DNA from: an uncultured delta proteobacterium
Lineage (GTDB): Bacteria > Desulfobacterota > Binatia > UBA9968
Assembly (NCBI GenBank): GCA_963840855.1
Contig: CAWJBB010000018.1
Coordinates: 1 to 10,227 of the forward strand
Length of the DNA stretch: 10,227 bases
Reading direction: 5' to 3'
Of the stretch, positions 1 to 10,227 are shown piece after piece (the first letter of the stretch is position 1; each line of letters starts with the position of its first letter). The notes below the pieces were generated by a model, which made no database searches, had not been told where the DNA came from, and saw nothing but the letters and a program-made list of their open reading frames with translations. A program made the position numbers and the translations under genes.

Positions 1-31
1 GGTATGGCTAGACTTTGACACGGAGGTATGT

Positions 32-2404
32 GTGGAGGTCAAGAACCATGTCGAGATTGGCGACAGGCTGAAACGCAAGGAGACCGAGCGCCTCATTGCC
101 GGCAAGGGCACTTTCGTCGACGACGTTCAGCCGGCCGGCGCGCTCTATGTCGCTTTTGTTCGCAGTATCTACGCCCACGCCAGAATCAAGCAGATCGACA
201 CCCGGCCCGCGCTGTCGATTCCAGGTGTGCACGCGGCCGTGACGGGAGGCGATATTCTCGGGGATTTGGCCGAGGTTCGGGGCGGTCCGGTACGCGATAT
301 AAAAATCTATCCGCTGGCGATGGACAAAGTGCGTTATGTAGGCGAGCCGATCGCCGCCGTTGTCGCCGAAAGTCGCTATCTGGCGGAAGATGGGACCGAG
401 GCCGTTGTGGTGGATTACGAAGCCTTGCCCGCGGTGGTGGACCCTGAGAAAGCGATGAGCGCATCATCGACCAAACTTTTCGACGAGCTCAAGAGCAACA
501 TCGTCTATGAGTTTCACTTTTCTACTCCTGATCTGGACCAAGTCTTCCGCACTGCCGACCTTGTGATTTCGGAGCGCTTGAACAGCCAGCGGCTCACTCC
601 TTTCCCCATGGAACCGCGCGCGTACTGCGCCGAGTACGAACCGCGCAGCGGACTGCTCACCTGTTGGGCCTCCACCGCCGGCGCGCATAATTTCAGGACA
701 CGGCTGGCGGAGACATTGGGATTCCCCGAAAGCAAAATAAGAGTGGTCGCGCCGGACGTGGGCGGCTCCTTTGGCGGCAAAAACGGCGGCTATCAGGAGG
801 AAGTGGTGGTGCCGCTGCTGGCGCTAAAATTGGAGCGCCCGATGAAATGGGCGGAGACGCGGGTCGAGCATCTGCGCACCGCGCGTCAGGGACGCGATCA
901 AATCCACTACATCGACGTGGCTGTCAAAAAGGACGGGACCATCCTCGCGGTCCGCGACAAAATCATCGCCGATATCGGTTGCAGTTACGGTGTCGACAAT
1001 TCGATTAGCTCGGCGGCCTTGTACGTTCCCGGCGTCTATCAAATTCAGAATTACGCCGTGGACGCCTACGGCATCGCGACCAATAAGGCCAACCACGGCT
1101 CATTGCGCGGCATCGGCAAAGCGGAAGCCGCGTTCGTTATCGAACGGATGGTCGATATCATCGCGCGCAAATTGAAGCTCGATTCGGTGGAGGTGAGGAA
1201 AAAGAATTTCATTCCCCCCGAAGCCTTTCCTTACCGGAATGTCACCGGGGCGCTTTACGACAGCGGCCAGTATGAAAAATGTCTGACCCAGGCGTTGGAG
1301 CTGGCGCAGTACGAAGAAGCAAAAGCAGAAAAGAAACGGCTCCGGGCCCAAGGCATCTATCGAGGCATCGGCGCGGTTCTGGTGATGGAGCCCACCAGTT
1401 CCAGGAGAATATATGCGACCGGAGGCTATGCGACGTGCCGGATCAGAATAGAACCATCCGGAACCGTCAGCGTGTTCTCCAGCGTGGGCGATCAAGGGCA
1501 AGGCCATGGCACGACGATCAGCGCAATCGTGGCCAGCCGAATCGGTTTCCCGCTGGACAAGATTTACGTGATTCGGGGCGATACGGCGGCCACCCCTTAC
1601 GGTTTCGGCACCGGCAGCAGCCGCTCGTCGGTGGTGCAAATGAACGCCGCGCTTTTGGCGGCGGAACGCTTGCGAGACAAATTGCTCAATATCGCGGCGC
1701 GCAATTTAAAGGTGCCGGCTAGAGAACTGGTAATCCGCGACGGCAAAGTCTGCGAGAAGGACGGCATCAAGGCGATCGGGTTGAAGGACATTGTGCGCAT
1801 GGCCTACGGCGCGATCCACCAGCTTCCCGAAGACGAGGAGCCCGGCCTGGAGGTCACGAGCCAATTTATTAATCCCAATATCGACTACGTTCCGGATGAG
1901 CGAGGACGGATGAATACGTTTTCGGCGTATCCCTACGCAGCCGTGGTGGCGGTCGTCGACGTGGACATCCACACCGGATTCGTCAAGATCGTGAAGTACT
2001 GCACGGTGCACGACTGCGGCAATATTATCAATCCGCAGATTGTCGAAACACAGCACTACGGCTCGGTGGTCCAGGGCATCGGCGCGGCGATCTATGAGCA
2101 AATCGTTTACGACGAGGACGGTCAATTAGTTACGGCTAGCCTGATGGACTACAAAGTCCCGACCGTAGAGGAGGTTCCCGATATCCGCCTTGGCCACCTG
2201 ATTACGCCGAGCCCGTTTTCTCCCCTGGGCACCAAAGGAGCGGGAGAAACCGGGATGCTCGGACCGCCGCCGGCGCTAGCCAGCGCCATTGAAGATGCGC
2301 TTGCGGAGTTTGGCGTGGAAATTCGCAACACGCCTTACACTCCGGAAAAGATCCTCGGGCTCATCCGGCAGGCGAAAAAGGAAGAAACGGTCCCGGCGGG
2401 CTAG
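32..2404 (+). CDS. Molybdopterin-binding large subunit, xanthine dehydrogenase / CoxL-CutL-like molybdenum hydroxylase (790 aa)
   Basis: GTG start with GGAGG at 22-26. Family motifs: G+G+FVDD, VRSIYAHARI, KVRYVGEPIAAVVA, PMEPR, APDVGGSFGGK, RGIG loop, GQGH, DCGNIINP and KGAGE with the catalytic Glu (E739). Confidence 0.95.
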   Translation: MEVKNHVEIGDRLKRKETERLIAGKGTFVDDVQPAGALYVAFVRSIYAHARIKQIDTRPALSIPGVHAAVTGGDILGDLAEVRGGPVRDIKIYPLAMDKVRYVGEPIAAVVAESRYLAEDGTEAVVVDYEALPAVVDPEKAMSASSTKLFDELKSNIVYEFHFSTPDLDQVFRTADLVISERLNSQRLTPFPMEPRAYCAEYEPRSGLLTCWASTAGAHNFRTRLAETLGFPESKIRVVAPDVGGSFGGKNGGYQEEVVVPLLALKLERPMKWAETRVEHLRTARQGRDQIHYIDVAVKKDGTILAVRDKIIADIGCSYGVDNSISSAALYVPGVYQIQNYAVDAYGIATNKANHGSLRGIGKAEAAFVIERMVDIIARKLKLDSVEVRKKNFIPPEAFPYRNVTGALYDSGQYEKCLTQALELAQYEEAKAEKKRLRAQGIYRGIGAVLVMEPTSSRRIYATGGYATCRIRIEPSGTVSVFSSVGDQGQGHGTTISAIVASRIGFPLDKIYVIRGDTAATPYGFGTGSSRSSVVQMNAALLAAERLRDKLLNIAARNLKVPARELVIRDGKVCEKDGIKAIGLKDIVRMAYGAIHQLPEDEEPGLEVTSQFINPNIDYVPDERGRMNTFSAYPYAAVVAVVDVDIHTGFVKIVKYCTVHDCGNIINPQIVETQHYGSVVQGIGAAIYEQIVYDEDGQLVTASLMDYKVPTVEEVPDIRLGHLITPSPFSPLGTKGAGETGMLGPPPALASAIEDALAEFGVEIRNTPYTPEKILGLIRQAKKEETVPAG

Positions 2405-2405
2405 T

Positions 2406-2510
2406 GATAATCTTCCCGGCGCAAGCGACGAAATGTTTGGCCTCTCAATGGAGGCGCGGCGCATGATTCTTAGCGGGAACTGTTTTAATAGCCATCCGAT
2501 ATGGCGTTGA
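2406..2510 (+). pseudogene. Possible 3' remnant of an amidohydrolase-family gene
   Basis: The intergenic frame reads DNLPGASDEMFGLSMEARRMILSGNCFNSHPIWR*. This loosely resembles the amidohydrolase_2 C-terminus pattern LSxEx+xxILxxNA. The match is short and judged by eye. Confidence 0.25.
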
Positions 2511-2522
2511 GGGAGGCTTTTG

Positions 2523-3386
2523 ATGTATCCGGCCGCATTCGAGTATCTGGAGCCACAGAGTTTGCAGGAAGCTGTGGATTTTCTCGCCCGGCTGGGCGAA
2601 GACGCAAGGATTCTTGCCGGGGGCCAAAGCTTGATCCCATTGATGAAATTGCGCCTGGCGCGGCCGAAATATTTGATCGACCTCAATCGCGTCGCCGGAT
2701 TGAGCTATGTCGAAGAGCGCGAAGGTTGCCTGATGATCGGGGCACTGACCAGGCACGCGGACATCGAAAGCTCTCCTTTGGTCCGCGAGAAAATTCCGAT
2801 GATGCGCGAAGCCGTAAGCCTGCTCGGCGACTTGCAAGTGCGAAACTTGGGGACCGCCGCCGGCGCTATCGTGGAAGCGGATCCCGCGGGGGACTGGGGA
2901 CCGGTAATCTTGGCCCTCAACGCTCGGCTGCGCTGTCTGGGCCCGCGCGGCGAGCGCGAAATCAAGGCAACGGATTTTTATACATTTGCCTACACGACCG
3001 TTCTTGAGACCGACGAGCTGGTCAGAGAAGTCGCGGTTCCAATCCCGAGCAGGCCAACTCTGGGGAGGTACATAAAACTCGAAAGAGTGGCCGGCGACTT
3101 CGCGGTGGCGAGCGTGGCGGTGCAAGCGGATATCGACAAAGATAGGGTCTGTCGCGACATCGGCATCGGCCTGGGCGGCGCGGGCGAATGTCCCGTAAAA
3201 CCGGCAGCGGTCGAGACCATGCTGCGCGGCCAAACGCTGTCGCCCGAGATCATCGAGCGCGCCGGAGGGCAAATTCGCGACATCGCCAGCCCGATCAGCG
3301 ATCTGAGGGGGTCCTTCGAATATAAAAAGGAAGTCCTGAAGGTGATCTTTTGCCGCGCCTTGGCGCAACTGACCGATCAACGGTGA
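2523..3386 (+). CDS. FAD-binding medium subunit (CoxM/CutM-like) of the molybdenum hydroxylase
   Basis: GGAGG at 2512-2516 favours ATG 2523 over TTG 2520. Motifs: MYPAAFEY, LAGGQSLIPLMKLRLARP, IGALTRH, QVRNLGT, ADPAGD, SDLRGSxEY+. Confidence 0.95.
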   Translation: MYPAAFEYLEPQSLQEAVDFLARLGEDARILAGGQSLIPLMKLRLARPKYLIDLNRVAGLSYVEEREGCLMIGALTRHADIESSPLVREKIPMMREAVSLLGDLQVRNLGTAAGAIVEADPAGDWGPVILALNARLRCLGPRGEREIKATDFYTFAYTTVLETDELVREVAVPIPSRPTLGRYIKLERVAGDFAVASVAVQADIDKDRVCRDIGIGLGGAGECPVKPAAVETMLRGQTLSPEIIERAGGQIRDIASPISDLRGSFEYKKEVLKVIFCRALAQLTDQR

Positions 3387-3419
3387 CGGATTTCGAAAAA
3401 GCATTGCGCGAGCGAAACG

Positions 3420-3527
3420 ATGAAGTTCGATGATTTAAGAGAATTCATAGACTGCACGAGAACGCGCGGCGACCTCCAGAAATCAAAGGAATCGACTGGG
3501 ACCTGGAGATCGGCGCGATCACAGTAA
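3420..3527 (+). pseudogene. Frameshifted, truncated 5' fragment of a UbiD-family (prFMN-dependent) decarboxylase gene
   Basis: ATG 3420 gives MKFDDLREFIDCTRTRGDLQK. Shifting -1 at the AAA run (3480-3482) continues IKGIDWDLEIGAIT. Together these match the UbiD N-terminal pattern DLREFI...GEL..I...DW.LEIGAI. The unshifted frame stops at TAA 3525-3527. Confidence 0.75.
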
Positions 3528-3541
3528 CACGGGGGAATATC

Positions 3542-4027
3542 GTGCCAAGAGAAATCGCCGTGAATGTGAACGGTACGCAGCGTCTGGTCAAAGTCGAGCC
3601 GCGGACGCTGCTCATTCACATGCTGAGGGATACCTTGGGGTTGACCGGGGCCCATATCGGCTGTGTGGTCGGCAAGTGCGGCGCCTGCACCGTGCTGTGG
3701 CAGGGACGGCAGGTAAAATCTTGCATGGTGTTTGCGGTGCAGACCGCGGGAACCGAAGTTGTAACCATTGAGGGGCTCGCGAAGAACGGGCGATTGCATG
3801 AGCTGCAGCAAGCATTTTGGGACGCGGATGCGGCGGAGTGCGGCTATTGCACGCCAGGCATGATCATGGCCGCATACGGATTTCTCCTGAAAAATCCCAA
3901 TCCCAGCGAGAGCGAGATAAAGCACGCAATCGCCGGAAATCTCTGCCGCTGTACCGGCTATCGCAATATCGTCCAGGCCATTAAAAAAGCTGCCAAGGAT
4001 CTGCAAGCGGAAGCGAAGCCTGCTTGA
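3542..4027 (+). CDS. 2x[2Fe-2S] small subunit (CoxS/CutS-like) of the molybdenum hydroxylase
   Basis: GTG start with GGGGGA at 3531-3536. Cys motifs GCVVGKCGACTV...KSC, CGYCTPG and GNLCRCTGY; also VEPRTLL...LRD.LGLTG and TIEGL. Confidence 0.95.
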   Translation: MPREIAVNVNGTQRLVKVEPRTLLIHMLRDTLGLTGAHIGCVVGKCGACTVLWQGRQVKSCMVFAVQTAGTEVVTIEGLAKNGRLHELQQAFWDADAAECGYCTPGMIMAAYGFLLKNPNPSESEIKHAIAGNLCRCTGYRNIVQAIKKAAKDLQAEAKPA

Positions 4028-4096
4028 TGGTTAGAAGACGTGATCTCGGACAATGGATTGAGAATCAGTAGAAACGAAACCATAGGAGGAAGCAGC

Positions 4097-4630
4097 ATGT
4101 TGTCAATCAATCCCGATATGAAGAAGTTGGTGCAGCGCCAATTGGAAGAGCGCGGCACAAGGGCGCCTGGACAACCCGAGCGACCCGTCACCACTGTGAA
4201 GTCCAAAGCGCTTCACGATCTGCAGTTTCGCGCCAGCGTCGAAGGTCATATTTTCATCTCCGACGAGCGGGAGTCCGCCGGGGGCACGGACGCCGGACCG
4301 GCGCCGCTACGATACTTCCTGGCGGGTGTGATGATGTGCCACCAGGTGTGGTGCGTGAAGAGCGCCGCGCTCGCCGACGTTCGGTTTGAGAACCTCGAAG
4401 GTGAGATCTCGGGCTACGTGGCGCGCCCCGACTCGCCGCGCAAAGGCGGCTTTGAACGCGCCACATTTACGGTCACAATCGACAGCCCAAACTCGTCCGA
4501 GGATGTGAAGAAAATCGTTGCTAGGGCGAGCGAACAGTGCACGTCCTTCGTGACCTTTGCGCGCGCCGCCCGAATCGATGTAACCTTAATCCATAATGGC
4601 CAGAAGGTCGACGAGCGCAGTTACGGGTGA
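4097..4630 (+). CDS. OsmC/Ohr-family protein (177 aa)
   Basis: AGGAGG at 4084-4089 supports ATG 4097 rather than GTG 4040. SDE...GGTDAGPAPLRYFLAGVMMC and ASEQCTSFVTF carry the two family cysteines. Confidence 0.85.
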   Translation: MLSINPDMKKLVQRQLEERGTRAPGQPERPVTTVKSKALHDLQFRASVEGHIFISDERESAGGTDAGPAPLRYFLAGVMMCHQVWCVKSAALADVRFENLEGEISGYVARPDSPRKGGFERATFTVTIDSPNSSEDVKKIVARASEQCTSFVTFARAARIDVTLIHNGQKVDERSYG

Positions 4631-4706
4631 TCCGGAGCTGCCAGCGAACGATGGTTCGGCAATCGATTGATCGTTATAAAAGGTCGCTATGCTCAGGAGG
4701 TGAACG

Positions 4707-5777
4707 ATGAAGGTAAAGGGAATCGCTATAGCCGCGATGTTCGCGGTCTCTATCGCAGCTGGCCCGTACCTGCTCGCGCGGGTTCACGCTGCTCAAGCCC
4801 CACTGTCGGTCAAACAGCAAGCGCTGATTGAGGCGGCTAAGAAAGATGCCGTTTTCGATATCATCGCGACCTGGAGGCCCAATGAAGCCAAAGCGATATT
4901 CGGCGCCTTCAAAGAAGCCTACCCGTTCATAGAGGTCAAACAAACGATGATGGCGGGCGCCGTCGGTTTTGAAAGACTCAGAGCTGAATTTGCCTCCGGC
5001 CGGCGCACTACCGATCTCATCAACACTTCCACCATCGATCTGGAAAGAGCCGGCATGGTCCAGGCCTGGCAGGACTGGTTTGACGTCTTTCCAAAGACGA
5101 AGAAGAAAACCGTTCATTCATCATTGACCGCAGCTCTGGAGCCCGGCGGAACCTACGCTCTCGTGTATCGCCAGGATCTAGTGCCGAAAGACTTGCAACC
5201 GCTCACCTACGCAAAGTTGTCGGACCCCCGTCTGCGCAGCAAGATCGGCGTCAATATACGGCAATATTATTTCTGGGACGCGATGTACCCGAAGTGGAGC
5301 GAAGAAGAGATCATGCGCTACGTCAAGACCGTCATCGTGCCGCAGAAGCCCCGCTTGTACAACGGCTCGGGCGACGGCTGGGAGATGCTGGTGCGCGGCG
5401 AAGTCTGGGCCAATCCCGTTTCCAACACGCACCAGTATTTTTCGCGTTATCAACCGAAAGGGGTCAAGAACATCGCGGTGGCGCCGGACTACGCCGGGGT
5501 GGAATCCGGCAAGCCCATCGCGCTACTGAAAGATGCTCCGCACCCCAACGCAGCAAAATTGTTTCTGCACTGGATCACCTCGGACCGTGGCCAGGAATCT
5601 CTCTACCAGCATCGGGGTCGAGGCAACCCATACGATGACAGCAACATCGTTGGACGCTGGTTCAAGCAACATGGCGCGAAGCTCCACGAGTATCCCGATG
5701 AAGAACGCGAGGCTAAAGCGAGGGAGAGCGGCGCACAAATCCTGCAATTGTTCGGCGTCCCAGTACCCGAGAGATAA
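4707..5777 (+). CDS. ABC transporter substrate-binding protein, FbpA/AfuA-like (Fe3+/thiamine/polyamine-type fold), substrate unknown
   Basis: AGGAGGTG RBS, N-terminal signal peptide, LIEAAKK, YPFIEV and the C-terminal APHPNAAKLFLHWITSDRGQ motif. Directly upstream of an FbpB-like permease. Confidence 0.88.
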   Translation: MKVKGIAIAAMFAVSIAAGPYLLARVHAAQAPLSVKQQALIEAAKKDAVFDIIATWRPNEAKAIFGAFKEAYPFIEVKQTMMAGAVGFERLRAEFASGRRTTDLINTSTIDLERAGMVQAWQDWFDVFPKTKKKTVHSSLTAALEPGGTYALVYRQDLVPKDLQPLTYAKLSDPRLRSKIGVNIRQYYFWDAMYPKWSEEEIMRYVKTVIVPQKPRLYNGSGDGWEMLVRGEVWANPVSNTHQYFSRYQPKGVKNIAVAPDYAGVESGKPIALLKDAPHPNAAKLFLHWITSDRGQESLYQHRGRGNPYDDSNIVGRWFKQHGAKLHEYPDEEREAKARESGAQILQLFGVPVPER

Positions 5778-5780
5778 CCT

Positions 5781-7511
5781 ATGCAGCTGGTGGAGACGGC
5801 AAGGGTAATATACGCCGGCAAGCTCCTGCCTCGTTTCAACGTGACCAATGTTGTCCTGGTCGGGACGGTTGCGATCATCGCTTATCTAGTTCTTGCTCCG
5901 ATCATTTTTCTCCTGTGGAGCAGCTTTCGGACCGCGTTGCCCACGCCGGCCAATCCGGGGCTCTTCACGTTAAAAAACTACACCTTTGTCTACAGTAACC
6001 CTGCCACATATACGTTGTTTCTTAACACGGCGATCTTCGTCACTGTCTGCACATCGCTCGCGCTTCTGCTAGCCGTTGGTTTCGCGTGGCTGATCGAACG
6101 CACCGACATTCCGGCCAAAGGCACGCTTTTCGTATTGATTTTGCTGCCATCGGCGGTGCCGTCGTTGCTGATGGGAATATCGTACATCATCTTGGCCGGG
6201 CCTGAAGCAGGGCTGCTGAATCGCCTGACCGATGACTTGTTCGGCGTCAAGCTTTTCAACATCTTCTCCCTCCCTGCCATGTTCATCTTGCAGGCTCTCA
6301 GCAGCGTACCGTCGTCTTTCTTAATCGTGCTCTCCGCGCTTAGAAGCATGGACCCGGCCCTCGAGGAGGCCTCCGCCGTTTCAGGGGTGAGTTGGCTGAG
6401 CACGCTGCGGCGGGTCACCTTGCCGATGATGCTTCCGGCGATCTTGTCAGCCGCTATCTACACCGGAATGAATATCGCCGAGACCTTCGAAATCCCGGCG
6501 CTGATCGGCGTGCCCATTGGGTTTCACGTGCTTTCCTCCCAGGTGTATCTTTCTTTACGGGTGTGGGGAAACCATACCGTTGCCAGCGCCTATTCCGTCA
6601 TTTTTCTCATCATGCTCATTGGCTTGGTTTTTCTCTATCAAAGGGCGACCCGCCACGGGTTTCGCTACGCCACCATCTCGGGAAAGGGATACCGGCCCAA
6701 ACTCATCGGCATCGGCCGTTGGCGCTATGTTGCGCTAGCTCTGATCGCCGTTTATCTTTTCGTGACCCTCGGCTTGCCGTTTTTCATTCTTGTTTGGTCC
6801 AGCCTCTTTCCGACCTGGCAATCGCCTTCTTTGGCGCTGTTGACTCAGTTGAACTTAGACAGCTACCGTGAAGTATTCGGCAACGCCAATTTCCTTGATA
6901 GCGTGAAAAACACTTTGATCCTGATGCTGGTTACTCCGGTTATAACCGTCGCCTTGATCAGCGTCGCCGCATGGCTCATCGTGCGCTCCAATTTGAGCTT
7001 GAAGAGCAAAGCGCTGCTCGACACCCTGACCTTTTGGCCCCATGCCTATCCGGGGATCGTTCTGGGAGTCGCGCTTCTATGGTTCTTCATCATCGTGGAC
7101 TTTCCGCCAGTCTGGGGCACCCTCTGGCCCATCATATTAGGGCTGACAATTTCTTACATGCCCTTTAGCGTCCGGACTTTAAACGCCGCTTTTATCCAGG
7201 TCCATCACGAACTCGAGCAGGCGGCTTACGTCAGCGGCGCGAGCTGGCTAACCACTTTTCTGCGGGTGACGCTGCCTCTGGTTTTACCCGCGCTTACCTC
7301 CGTAGCTCTCTGGGTCGCCATTCATGCGATGCGTTCGCTCACAGTGCCGATGTTCTTGACCACTCAGGGCAACGAAGTGCTGGCGATGCTTCTGTGGACC
7401 TATTGGGATAACGATATGGTCGAGGCGGTTTCCGTCATCGGCCTCTTGTATCTCGTCGTTTGCGTCGTTTTGTCGTTGTTGTGGCGTCGTTACGGGTTCA
7501 GGGATTGGTAA
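5781..7511 (+). CDS. ABC transporter permease, FbpB/ThiP-like with two fused transmembrane domains
   Basis: Highly hydrophobic, 576 aa. Two EAA loops (MDPALEEASAVSGVS...RRVTLP and VHHELEQAAYVSGAS...RVTLPL), plus ERTDIP and YATISGKGYRP. Starts 3 nt after the upstream stop. Confidence 0.92.
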   Translation: MQLVETARVIYAGKLLPRFNVTNVVLVGTVAIIAYLVLAPIIFLLWSSFRTALPTPANPGLFTLKNYTFVYSNPATYTLFLNTAIFVTVCTSLALLLAVGFAWLIERTDIPAKGTLFVLILLPSAVPSLLMGISYIILAGPEAGLLNRLTDDLFGVKLFNIFSLPAMFILQALSSVPSSFLIVLSALRSMDPALEEASAVSGVSWLSTLRRVTLPMMLPAILSAAIYTGMNIAETFEIPALIGVPIGFHVLSSQVYLSLRVWGNHTVASAYSVIFLIMLIGLVFLYQRATRHGFRYATISGKGYRPKLIGIGRWRYVALALIAVYLFVTLGLPFFILVWSSLFPTWQSPSLALLTQLNLDSYREVFGNANFLDSVKNTLILMLVTPVITVALISVAAWLIVRSNLSLKSKALLDTLTFWPHAYPGIVLGVALLWFFIIVDFPPVWGTLWPIILGLTISYMPFSVRTLNAAFIQVHHELEQAAYVSGASWLTTFLRVTLPLVLPALTSVALWVAIHAMRSLTVPMFLTTQGNEVLAMLLWTYWDNDMVEAVSVIGLLYLVVCVVLSLLWRRYGFRDW

Positions 7512-7524
7512 TGCGAGGTTCGCA

Positions 7525-8529
7525 GTGATCAGAAGAATCTTCTATGCCAATTTTTTGTTTTTTCTCCTGATTTCAACAACTTTAACGGCTCAGGAGAAGA
7601 AGTCGCCGACCTTACAGGTAGCCTACGGAGCCCACTCGCCGAGCCGCTTTCCATATTTCGCCGCTAAGCAGGCACAGTTGTATCAAAAGCACGGTCTGGC
7701 GGTGAATCTGCTTTTCATCAGCGGCGCTCCCACGGCCCTTAACGCCCTCGTCGGCGGCGATATGCACATGGTTGCTACCTCCGGCGTGGCCGCTGCTTCC
7801 TTGGGCACTGCCGGAGGACAGGTAGTGATAATTGCAAGCATCGGAACCACTCCATATCGCCTGGTTGCGCGCCCCGAAATAAACTCGTTAGAGGAACTCC
7901 AGGGGAAGATAATCGGCATAGACCGCATCGGGGGAGCCACGGACTTCGCCCTCCAGGTATTGTTGCCGCAATTGCGCTTAGTCCCGGGAAAAGATGTAAA
8001 GCTTTTCCCCACCGGCTTAACCAATCCTGAACATAGAATTCAGCTCATGCGTCAAGGAAAAATCGATGCCACCTTGTCCGTTCCGGACGTCATCTTGAGG
8101 GTAACCAGCCAGGGGTACAAGATTAACACACTAGTAGATCTCGTCGAACGTGGGGTTTATACGAGCGGGGGCGATCTCATCACTTCGCGGCAGTTTCTCA
8201 AGGACAACCGTGGCTTGGCCCTCGCCTTTCTCAAAGCGCTGAGCGAAGCCATTTGGCTCGGCAAAACCAATAGAAACCTTGCCTCGAAGGTTTACCGGGA
8301 TTATCTCAAGACCGACAATGCCGAAGTTCTTGATGTTCTATATCAAACCTACGTTCAAGGGGTGATTAAAGCGAAGCCCTATCCTGATGCTCAAGAGCTG
8401 CAAAAAACCGTAGACTTCATAGCCACTGATAATCCTCGCCTCCGCGGTGTCAACGCGGCGAACTACACCGATGACAGTCTGATTAGCGAATTGGATAAGG
8501 ACGGATTCTTCGCGCGGCTCTACCGCTAG
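7525..8529 (+). CDS. ABC transporter substrate-binding protein, NMT1/THI5-SsuA/TauA-like
   Basis: GTG start with GAGGT at 7515-7519 and a signal peptide. Motifs: LYQKHGL.V.L, AL..LVGGD, I.S.EELQGK.IGI...GGATD, G.IDA, AFLKAL.EA and C-terminal DDSLI.ELDKDGFF..LY. Confidence 0.88.
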   Translation: MIRRIFYANFLFFLLISTTLTAQEKKSPTLQVAYGAHSPSRFPYFAAKQAQLYQKHGLAVNLLFISGAPTALNALVGGDMHMVATSGVAAASLGTAGGQVVIIASIGTTPYRLVARPEINSLEELQGKIIGIDRIGGATDFALQVLLPQLRLVPGKDVKLFPTGLTNPEHRIQLMRQGKIDATLSVPDVILRVTSQGYKINTLVDLVERGVYTSGGDLITSRQFLKDNRGLALAFLKALSEAIWLGKTNRNLASKVYRDYLKTDNAEVLDVLYQTYVQGVIKAKPYPDAQELQKTVDFIATDNPRLRGVNAANYTDDSLISELDKDGFFARLYR

Positions 8530-8681
8530 TGGCGACGACAGTCGTTAAGTTTTTGCCGCGCGTTGTTAGGCTTTAAGGATTGATGATGGTAACGCTGGTT
8601 CAAACTTCCATGTCTACGGCCCAAAGTTAAGGACAACAGATTGCCGTTCAATATCGGCTCCGGCGCACTTTGAACATTGAA

Positions 8682-8705
8682 CCCGTTCGACAAGTCTCAG
8701 GGCAG
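8682..8705. repeat. REP-like intergenic sequence forming the left (+ strand) flank of the IS110 insertion
   Basis: CCCGTTCGACAAGTCTCAGGGCAG resembles, from recollection, dispersed repeats of the CCCTTCGACAAGCTCAGGGCAGGC type. Only one copy is in the window, so repeat status is unproven. Confidence 0.45.
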
Positions 8706-8724
8706 ACTTTCTATGAGACTTGTC
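8689..8724. repeat. Perfect 11-bp inverted repeat straddling the IS right junction
   Basis: GACAAGTCTCA (8689-8699) and TGAGACTTGTC (8714-8724), separated by 14 nt. Confidence 0.85.
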
Positions 8725-8726
8725 AA
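8721..8726 (-). promoter_or_regulatory. -35 hexamer TTGACA in the IS right end (half of the circle-junction promoter)
   Basis: The + strand TGTCAA is a consensus TTGACA on the minus strand. It points out of the element, with 17 nt through to the end of the CT core. Confidence 0.8.
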
Positions 8727-8745
8727 GCCCCCTTATAGATTTTTT

Positions 8746-9972
8746 TTATGTGGCCTGGCGCATTCTTTGCCTGGTGATATTGGCCAAATGGTAGTTTTCG
8801 TCGTACGGTTTATGGTCTCGCCACATCACGAAAATAATCTTGAGCCACTTGGCTCCCAAAGCCCGAAGCGCTTGAGGATGGCTGTGTCCCTTCGCCCGTT
8901 GGTCGCGATAGTATTTGTCCGCCCACTCGCACCGATTGAGCGAGCTAAAGGAAAACCAGTAAGTGGCATAACGCAGCAGCTTGTTACACGCATAACGAAA
9001 CTGTACAAAACAGCTCTTGCCACTCTTTATGGTCACCGGCACCGCACCGGCCTCGGCCTGAAGGTGACGAAAAGAAACCCATCGACTCTCAGTATCGCCC
9101 AGCTCAGCCCAAAGCATGGGTATGGTCGTTCCACTCTTGCCGCCCGGCAGCGTCTTGGCCAGATCAGATGCCGGCGTAGAGGCGAAAAAACGTTGGACCT
9201 TTTCGCGGTAGCTATCCACCGCTTCACTCAAAGTTTTGAGCTGACCCACGAGCACCGCAAGCAACTGCGACTTGGCTCTCACCACATGCTCGGGAACCTT
9301 CAGTTGAGGTTTATTGAGATCTTCCCACAACTGCTCACAGCGCTCCTTACCAAGATGATGCTCGCGCATGGCAAAGCGGTTCCATTCTCTGCGGCTAAGA
9401 TTCGACAGGGCTTGGGGGGTCGGATACTTCGTGAGAAAATCCAGGGCAATCTTCGATTCCAGATCAGCAAACACCTCCAAGGGCCGTGGATAGTACTCTT
9501 TAAGGGTGCGATCGAGCAGATTGCGTATACGCGTTTTATGGCGCCCCAGACGGTGGTGATCCCGAGTGAGCATTTTAAGTTCCTGGGCCTGCTCAGAATC
9601 GGGTTGAAGGGCTCTCAAGCGGGCATGATCGCTCCTCACAATATCCGCCAACACGTAGGCATCAAAGGAATCGCTCTTGGACTGGCTCATCCGAAACCGA
9701 TCCCGAGATCGATCCAAAGCCTTGGGATTGATCGGATAGACCACTACCCCATGATCCAACAGAAAATCCACAATCCGCCCTTGTGGCTTCTCAATGGCCG
9801 CCCACAACTCGATCCCCTGCGCCCGACGCTCGTCGAGCCAGCGGCCAAACTCACTCAGGGCTTCGGCTTTCTGAGCCAGTTTTATCTCGATTACTTTTTT
9901 GCCCTCTACATCGCCGACCCAAACCTGATGAAACTCATCGGCCCAATCCACACCCAAATAGTATCGCTCCAA
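8746..9972 (-). CDS. IS110-family transposase/recombinase (408 aa)
   Basis: TTG start with AAGGAG at 9982-9987. RuvC-like DEDD residues in YLGVDWA, AIE and SKSDSFDA. C-terminal domain LPG...AELGD...AGAVPVTIKSGK with the conserved Ser, then CNKLLR and ALRAL. The frame is intact. Confidence 0.96.
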   Translation of the reverse strand: MERYYLGVDWADEFHQVWVGDVEGKKVIEIKLAQKAEALSEFGRWLDERRAQGIELWAAIEKPQGRIVDFLLDHGVVVYPINPKALDRSRDRFRMSQSKSDSFDAYVLADIVRSDHARLRALQPDSEQAQELKMLTRDHHRLGRHKTRIRNLLDRTLKEYYPRPLEVFADLESKIALDFLTKYPTPQALSNLSRREWNRFAMREHHLGKERCEQLWEDLNKPQLKVPEHVVRAKSQLLAVLVGQLKTLSEAVDSYREKVQRFFASTPASDLAKTLPGGKSGTTIPMLWAELGDTESRWVSFRHLQAEAGAVPVTIKSGKSCFVQFRYACNKLLRYATYWFSFSSLNRCEWADKYYRDQRAKGHSHPQALRALGAKWLKIIFVMWRDHKPYDENYHLANITRQRMRQAT

Positions 9973-10003
9973 GTTCTTCTACTCCTTCTTTTTTTATTCC
10001 CTT

Positions 10004-10203
10004 TTCTAAAAGCGCTGAACGGAATGTTCGCCTTATATCGGTCCTCCAAGGGACAACTTTCTATTGAACCTTTAGCTCCGTTCTCTCGCTGGCCGGGACA
10101 GTCTGCCCCAGATCCTCATGGCGGATCAGGCCTCGAAGGTCCTCATGCCAGCAAGCTCTCAGAATCGGTGTTAATCCAATTACGTTATACCTATAAACGT
10201 GAC
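10004..10203 (-). ncRNA. Predicted IS110 bridge RNA with target-binding loop (10085-10155) and donor-binding loop (10017-10083); ends approximate
   Basis: Two stem-loops, each with an 11x11-nt internal loop, whose sequences match the element junctions. It lies just downstream of the junction promoter -10 and upstream of the recombinase RBS. Confidence 0.82.
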
Positions 10204-10209
10204 CTTACT

Positions 10210-10215
10210 AATATA
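10210..10215 (-). promoter_or_regulatory. -10 hexamer TATATT at the IS left end (other half of the circle-junction promoter)
   Basis: Immediately inside the CT core. Joining the ends gives TTGACA-AGTCTCATAGAAAGTCT-TATATT (17-nt spacer). Confidence 0.78.
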
Positions 10216-10227
10216 AGGCCCTTAGGC

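Follow-up and report, generated by a model that had tools for sequence, protein, structure and literature searches.

Thousands of bridge RNAs were predicted in 2024. Among the systems of this kind, IS621 of Escherichia coli has been shown experimentally to act through RNA (PMC11208160). The available text of the IS621 papers describes an RNA with a 5′ stem-loop, a target loop module (nt 34–98), a flexible linker of 11 nt and a donor loop module (nt 110–177); in each loop the left guide pairs with the bottom strand and the right guide with the top strand, the core takes part in each pairing, and two handshake bases lie 3′ of each right guide (PMC11208160, PMC11208158). IS622 / ISCro4 from Citrobacter rodentium has since been described together with 72 screened IS110 orthologues, as given in the accessible part of that report (10.1101/2025.05.14.653916), and a 2026 survey, as far as its accessible text goes, lists 86 covariance models and 32,190 predicted bridge RNAs beside PF01548+PF02371 proteins, many of which depart from the IS621 structure while still covarying with donor and target (10.64898/2026.10.21.760802). 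Elements of the IS1111 group, in the same available IS621 text, carry their RNA in a long right end and have subterminal inverted repeats of 7–17 bp (PMC11208160).

The window analysed here is an entire contig of 10,227 nt from an assembly of 7.1 Mb in 93 contigs. Positions 8704–10217 hold, on the minus strand, a 1,512-bp IS110-family insertion sequence (one core counted). Judging from sequence comparison, we consider this, with a probability of roughly 0.93, to be an intact and probably recently active IS110-group element that moves by bridge-RNA-guided recombination. The strings and coordinates given in a first-pass annotation of this DNA are all present in the sequence (Table 1), and its interpretation as an IS110 bridge-RNA system is borne out by both Pfam domains, the IS621 catalytic residues, covarying helices, and guides that track flanks and ends, with guide order and strand sense as in the available descriptions of IS621 (PMC11208160, PMC11208158). 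The neighbours at window positions 2–8529 are ordinary metabolism and transport genes. A 517-aa frame on the plus strand (8677–10227), open at the contig end, runs opposite the transposase and spans the whole element; it is most likely an antisense artefact.

Table 1. Positions of the element, its predicted RNA parts and the neighbouring genes in the 10,227-nt window.
Feature	Position	Strand	Basis or remark
Molybdopterin-binding large subunit, xanthine dehydrogenase / aldehyde oxidase family	2–2404		
[2Fe-2S] small subunit	3542–4027		
OsmC-like protein	4040–4630		
Solute-binding protein	4707–5777		
Two-domain ABC permease	5781–7511		
NMT1/THI5-like binding protein	7525–8529		
Right flank (target)	8660–8703	minus	Inside genomic repeat; GCCCT (8699–8703) read by right target guide at 4/5
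Whole insertion sequence with CT core at each junction	8704–10217	minus	Body 8706–10215; copy and homologue comparison
CT core dinucleotide, right copy	8704–8705	minus	Comparison with L002 and homologous loci
Right end ATAGAAAGT (left donor)	8706–8714	minus	Homologous right ends and repeat count
TTGACA, −35 half of split promoter, in right end	8721–8726	minus	Ends 15 nt before core
408-aa IS110-family recombinase	8746–9972	minus	RuvC-like DEDD domain 6–162; Tnp domain 273–356
AAGGAG ribosome-binding site	9982–9987	minus	Sequence; 9 nt upstream of TTG start
Closing helix P1, 3′ strand	10004–10013	minus	Covariation
Donor-binding loop module	10017–10083	minus	Sequence and covariation; outer stem, GTTC/GAAC stem, inner hairpin
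Donor loop, 3′ half: loop, GAAC, TTCCGTTC	10040–10030, 10029–10026, 10024–10017	minus	
Right donor guide with handshake bases CGATATAAGGC	10030–10040	minus	ATATAAG complements core and left-end TATAT; GC, last two flank bases
Donor loop inner hairpin GTCC-CTTGGA-GGAC	10054–10041	minus	
Left donor guide AATAGAAAGTT	10055–10065	minus	ATAGAAAGT within it equals right end
Donor loop, 5′ half: GAACGGAG, GTTC, loop	10083–10076, 10069–10066, 10065–10055	minus	
Target-binding loop module	10086–10154	minus	Fold and covariation; outer stem, GGAC/GTCC stem, inner hairpin
Target loop, 3′ half: loop, GTCC, GCCAGCGA	10110–10100, 10099–10096, 10093–10086	minus	
Right target guide with handshake bases TGGGGCAGACT	10100–10110	minus	GGGGC complements five flank bases, AG the core, ACT the last three right-end bases
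Target loop inner hairpin GATCC-GCCATGA-GGATC	10127–10111	minus	
Left target guide TTCGAGGCCT	10128–10137	minus	Same sense as left flank and core
Target loop, 5′ half: TTGCTGGC, GGAC, loop (C followed by left target guide)	10154–10147, 10142–10139, 10138–10128	minus	
Closing helix P1, 5′ strand	10155–10164	minus	MFE fold and covariation
Variable 5′ leader of predicted RNA	10165–10209	minus	Hairpin in MFE fold, not conserved
TATATT, −10 half of split promoter, at very start of left end	10210–10215	minus	Joined-end scan
CT core dinucleotide, left copy	10216–10217	minus	Comparison with L002 and homologous loci
Left flank	10218–10227	minus	Comparison with L002; 10 bases, then contig end

The ends were set at CT on both sides because an identical copy and three 78% copies diverge exactly outside it. 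The identical copy (L002) lies on another contig of the same genome and matches the window throughout the element, identity beginning at GGC-CT on the left and stopping at CT-G on the right. Three further copies in this genome, at different sites, belong to a 78%-related element (L003–L005; mutual identity 98.2–99.6%), and there too similarity breaks at CT on both sides. The same ends recur in 10 homologous loci, with CT at both junctions in the window copy, in L002–L005 and in nine further loci; the left junction of L022 reads AT. Like the IS110 group in general, the element is without terminal inverted repeats and has a short core at both junctions, and it combines a long non-coding left end of 243 nt (9973–10215), which is predicted to encode the RNA, with a short right end of 40 nt (8706–8745). 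It cannot be placed in the IS1111 group because a 40-nt right end has no room for an RNA.

The right flank (window 8660–8705, minus strand) is part of a repeat present in at least five other places in the genome (L006–L010), with GTTCAA-type short repeats around ...CT[GA]CCCTGAGCTTG[TC]CGAACGGGTTCAA.... Similar flanks of the form CCTGAG...GTCGAAGG adjoin the homologous elements in L004, L011, L012 and L020, and, as with other IS110 members, a repeated extragenic element seems to be the preferred site of the clade. An 11-bp perfect inverted repeat (GACAAGTCTCA ... TGAGACTTGTC; window 8689–8724) spans the right junction, one arm being subterminal element sequence beside the −35 box and the other flank; elsewhere in the genome the repeat reads TGAGCTTGTC and lacks the A, and the arm is missing from L002. 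This inverted repeat could be due to chance or to a right end that resembles the preferred target. It also accounts for an Rfam match to mir-4524, which we rejected.

The sole long open reading frame of the region starts with TTG and encodes a protein with PF01548 at residues 6–162 (106.4 bits, cut-off 29) and PF02371 at residues 273–356 (26.4 bits, cut-off 21.3). Its match to the NCBIfam model NF033542 (IS110 family RNA-guided transposase) covers the model from 1 to 343 of 343 and, at 133.3 bits, falls just short of the cut-off of 140, a near miss that marks divergence, as both Pfam domains pass. The only match with a solved structure is the IS621 transposase (8wt6; phmmer E = 3.2e-6, in two stretches of about 14 bits). 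Counted by hand on the printed alignment, D11, D102, D105 and S241 of IS621 align with D9, D101, D104 and S317, and IS621 E60 lies two positions off E61; these five residues (D9, E61, D101 and D104 of the RuvC-like domain, and the catalytic serine S317 of the Tnp domain) are invariant across 10 sequences whose identity falls as low as 37%. Among plasmids, the best match has 35.8% identity. From the Pfam, IS621, NCBIfam and plasmid results taken together, the protein is a clear but divergent member of the IS110 family.

Database searching returned 1,717 relatives at E ≤ 0.001, and the best 120 of these 1,717 are 77–93% identical and nearly all metagenomic. A scan of species-representative genomes gave 14 loci labelled Candidatus Binatia, Deltaproteobacteria, Latescibacterota, Edwardsbacteria and others, and a sample of 401 genomes of the phylum contained two, one of them the window's own, that match the protein at E ≤ 1e-60, too small a yield to enlarge the set of loci. 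The sources of the clade so far are uncultivated soil and groundwater bacteria labelled Binatia, Deltaproteobacteria and Latescibacterota. One 37%-identical relative (L026; G298 contig C236, reverse strand) has a donor-loop-like module and a closing helix upstream of its gene; downstream of the gene come a module resembling the target loop and then another pair of donor-like motifs. A left end of the CTTATAT type was not seen upstream of the gene. This layout may represent RNA parts at both ends or the remains of a neighbouring element.

Folding of the left end (9990–10210, minus strand) gave a minimum free energy (MFE) structure of −71.5 kcal/mol (z = −3.07) that contains the target-loop helices and a closing helix, TTCTGAGAGC/GCTTTTAGAA; the outer stem of the donor loop is present in the centroid and absent from the MFE structure. 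The two modules are separated by a linker of 2 nt. A comparison of structure and guides among homologues had been proposed as a check on the first-pass annotation, and we made it by aligning the left ends of 14 distinct loci and writing the helices from the window sequence. The alignment (A1) omits L002 and L005, whose RNA sequences are those of the window and L003, both being counted nevertheless as separate insertion sites in the guide and flank tests; L020, L023 and L024 were excluded as fragments, and L026, which could not be aligned to the RNA model region, was excluded from all counts. Over 43 pairs and 14 loci, 92.0% of 598 cells are standard pairs against 29.3–50.4% when the 3′ partner is slid by 1–3 columns, a control that favours the structure because this was derived from one of the aligned sequences. 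Independently of that bias, 19 of the 43 pairs change on both sides, and none of 500 shuffles reaches any of five measures. The left end thus shows what is expected of a bridge RNA, two stem-loops with large symmetric internal loops, conserved with covariation. In 10 of the 14 loci, columns 131/149, which form the outermost pair of the inner hairpin in the target loop, do not pair, and the base there is part of a left guide extended by one. An Rfam scan of 8500–10227 with E up to 10 returned no bridge RNA family; its three matches, all to unrelated families, are at chance level (best E = 1.2).

Among loci, the stretch that separates P1 from the left end ranges from 33 to 78 nt. Its folding z-score is 0.19 in the window and near zero in most of the 14 loci, falling below −2 in one of them (L017) and standing at −1.97 in L018. 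No conserved 5′ stem-loop was seen across the 14 loci, though a hairpin is predicted in the window's MFE fold; a conserved element of this kind is unsupported because the region is variable in length and its z-scores are mostly near zero.

The first-pass annotation had proposed that a helix closes both loops into a three-way junction and that the RNA architecture might be distinct. The helix itself is backed by covariation and by the MFE fold, with one correction: the C at 10155 cannot be in the closing helix and the target-loop stem together, and is therefore assigned to the former. As to the architecture, a tentative reading, possible but with the balance of our judgement against it, is that the clade uses a structurally distinct bridge RNA in which P1 and the 2-nt linker hold the two loops fast in a three-way junction; such an RNA would lack a conserved 5′ stem-loop and have an extended right target guide (core plus five bases, then three handshake bases). 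We regard it as unlikely that the functional RNA instead ends 3′ of the donor loop, as in the 177-nt RNA of IS621, so that P1 and the junction lie outside the active molecule and P1 acts only in a longer leader of the transposase mRNA, or not at all. Such an end would agree with the donor module of IS621, which in the available descriptions reaches the 3′ end of an RNA with a flexible linker (PMC11208158, PMC11208160), and with the finding that no terminator-like site follows P1 on the minus strand; however, P1 taken alone is 87.1% paired over the 14 loci against at most 55.7% when slid, 5 of its 10 pairs change on both sides (a count reached by 5 of 500 shuffles), it forms part of the MFE fold, and a 2-nt linker fits a closed junction.

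When the right and left ends are joined, they give a consensus promoter, TTGACA, 17 nt, TATATT, that is absent from the unjoined element; a consensus scan of the integrated element found no sigma-70-like promoter site. Of 14 elements, 12 have this split promoter with a 17-nt spacer and one has it with 18 nt; L018, the most distant locus, has a different −10 (TAGACT), also at 17 nt. Two RNA and two DNA public runs were inspected for transcripts as assembled contigs. One soil metatranscriptome contig is identical to the window over 10058–10221 and runs on into a chromosomal flank, and DNA carry-over is possible. A depth peak at 10028–10133 occurs both in RNA run X15 (77.1) and in DNA run X2 (54.1) and is uninformative on transcription because related elements share the conserved donor loop. 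In X15, one contig skips 9360–9432 and one skips 9978–10048; these probably stem from related elements.

Decay was seen in two relatives. L003 (contig C81) has a 1-nt deletion at element position 793 that stops the transposase frame at codon 218, and in the RNA region it shows no difference from L005, which is intact. The transposase of L021 (1501–2729) has 14 stops in the matched frame and several frame changes; despite this, its RNA helices are intact and its right guide matches the flank at 5/5. That the window copy is likewise a dead relic, immobile and with guides that merely record a past insertion, appears very unlikely: the existence of these decayed relatives and the lack of a right-end/left-end (circle) junction among the contigs of the four runs would fit such a relic, but the 408-aa reading frame is intact and of the commonest length among the best 120 of 1,717 homologues, the five catalytic residues are present, L002 is identical over the whole element at another site, and both promoter halves are consensus.

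Evidence for the main reading, that of an intact bridge-RNA-guided element, also comes from the guides, which were compared, for all four loops, with the sequences at the junctions of 16 insertions; tests of the right flank exclude L019 and L022, whose right ends are not on the contig. The reverse complement of the right target guide reads AGT-CT-NNNNN, where AGT stands for the three terminal bases of the right end, CT for the core and the five N for flank. The right target guide had been given as GGGCAG, complementary to core and flank; the complementarity holds, and the guide proved one base short, homologues giving the core plus five (CTGCCCC). In 14 insertions it matches its own flank at 4, 4, 5, 5, 5, 5, 5, 5, 5, 5, 5, 5, 3 and 5 of 5 positions (mean 4.71), against a mean of 2.35 of 5 for non-cognate flanks (170 pairs with different guides). 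When each of the nine distinct right target guides is represented by one insertion, agreement extends to 44 of 45 positions, a total that no permutation in 100,000 equalled. For the left target guide the mean is 6.5 of 9, and 4.47 with non-cognate flanks; here too, 100,000 permutations gave no result as good (14 distinct guides). It reaches 7–8 of 9 in most distant loci and is tabulated at 4–6 in the five insertions of the window genome; in the comparison of the two identical copies, the window's left flank gave the same 6/9 as previously reported, and that of L002 gave 8/9. Both target guides in the first loop thus covary with the target flanks, as those of a bridge RNA should. The three 78%-related copies provide a natural variant pair, as a single base in each target guide sets L004 apart from L003 and L005: its right guide is GGACAG and its flank GTCCT, whereas the guide of L003 and L005 is GGGCAG and their flank GCCCT.

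In the window, AGTCTGCCC lies at the right junction (8700–8708, minus strand) with its complement in the target loop (10100–10108, plus strand); 0.06 occurrences are expected by chance, and none of 200 shuffles had two. The left target guides of L014 and L016 match 8 and 7 consecutive flank bases but place GA opposite the CT core, and the clade of the window element may not need the left guide to pair with the core (L014, L016, L022). Second matches to the anchor motif in L004 and L018 were put down to chance. A genome search for the ideal 14-base target found no site at 0 or 1 mismatch, 56 at two and 481 at three; the genome therefore offers no obvious preferred empty site.

The second loop matches the right end and the left end, as a donor loop should. 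The proposed identity of the left donor guide (10056–10064) with the right end (8706–8714) is exact at 9/9: ATAGAAAGT occurs at these two places only in the window, both on the minus strand, where 0.03 occurrences are expected and two were found in none of 200 shuffles. The right donor guide ATATAAG is, as claimed, complementary to core and left end (CTTATAT) at 7/7. Donor guides follow the ends in L011 (ATAGAATGT), L017 (ATAGGAAGT) and L018 (ATAGTAAGT; left end TCTAT, with a guide that matches), whereas L003–L005 combine the right end ATAGAATGT with the guide ATAGAAAGT, an uncompensated 8/9. The handshake GC of the donor loop is invariant and matches the flank in 10 of 16 insertions, with only the C matching in the other six. 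That the left end is instead a cis-acting leader for transposase expression, or a set of protein-binding DNA sites whose matches are subterminal repeats at the DNA level, is the least likely of the explanations considered: small RNAs were, according to the available text, once proposed to modulate expression of the ISPpu9 recombinase (PMC11208160), but the flank, which lies outside the element, follows the nine different right guides, the helices stay paired through changes on both sides and so point to constraint at the RNA level, and the IS621 homologue works through RNA in experiments (PMC11208160).

Movement of the bridge-RNA-guided element may be pictured as follows. By analogy with the family, it would excise as a circle in which the right end is joined to the left end, creating the promoter across the CT core, and transcription from this promoter would copy about 200 nt of the left end into RNA. 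Sequence and covariation show that such an RNA folds into the two stem-loops with large internal loops, closed by P1. In the first, the left target guide has the sense of the left flank and core and the right target guide complements the core and five flank bases; in the second, the left donor guide is identical to the right end and the right donor guide complementary to core and left end. The handshake bases, of which three follow the right target guide and two the right donor guide, can pair with the other DNA partner after strand exchange. If the protein behaves like its IS621 homologue, it would bind the RNA and synapse the circle junction with a matching genomic site, and strands would be exchanged at CT.

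The element is best seen as a divergent addition to a known kind of bridge-RNA system, with modest architectural variation, and does not constitute a new system. It provides a well-documented natural example of bridge-RNA targeting in a lineage far from the E. coli model. Natural retargeting is evident in that nine right guides match their own sites and two variants with their matching sites coexist in one genome. Bridge-recombinase engineers may wish to try out the closing helix and the longer right guide. In IS621, as far as the available descriptions go, the two loops of one synaptic complex come from two RNA molecules and the linker is flexible; a rigid junction could for this reason alter the assembly of the complex or the number of RNAs in it. 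A three-way-junction RNA, if real, might serve as a more specific engineering scaffold. The element opens no new question, since publications already cover the mechanism and the covariation approach and include large catalogues of such RNAs.

Compared with IS621 as it is described in the accessible text, the element shares a two-domain recombinase (DEDD and serine), a CT core, a long left and a short right end and a promoter split over the ends, and its RNA likewise places the target loop before the donor loop, with four guides of the same strand sense and, on the 3′ side of the right guides, handshake bases. The left target even ends in GGCCT, in the manner of the wild-type IS621 target ATCAGGCCTAC (PMC11208160). 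The element differs in its only distantly related recombinase and the length of this protein (408 aa against 326, the 82 additional residues lying between the domains), in a right target guide of core plus five and three handshake bases where the available text on IS621 gives 4 (G77–G80) and 2, in an inter-loop linker of 2 nt against 11, in a covarying closing helix that links the region before the target loop to that after the donor loop, and in having no conserved 5′ stem-loop. A search of the running text of the literature on bridge RNAs and three-way junctions, as distinct from its figures and supplements, found no such architecture described among the papers listed.

Relative to the IS1111 group (seekRNA / bridge RNA), the recombinase family and the RNA-guided logic are the same, but the RNA lies in the left end, and only a short ATA...TAT pattern surrounds the donor. 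Like ISPpu9 and ISPpu10 of Pseudomonas putida, which the accessible parts of the reports place in repeated extragenic sequences (PMC12288879, 10.64898/2026.03.19.712850), the window copy is inserted in a repeat; the host lineage is a different one, and L002 lies outside the repeat of the window copy. With IS622 / ISCro4 and the accompanying screen, in which natural targets and donors were rebuilt from element boundaries, it shares the type of system, whereas those RNAs are, in the portion of the report available, IS621-like, 179 nt long and with an unpaired linker at 101–111 (10.1101/2025.05.14.653916). Given the accessible text of the 2026 survey, the window element would be expected in one of its clusters (10.64898/2026.10.21.760802).
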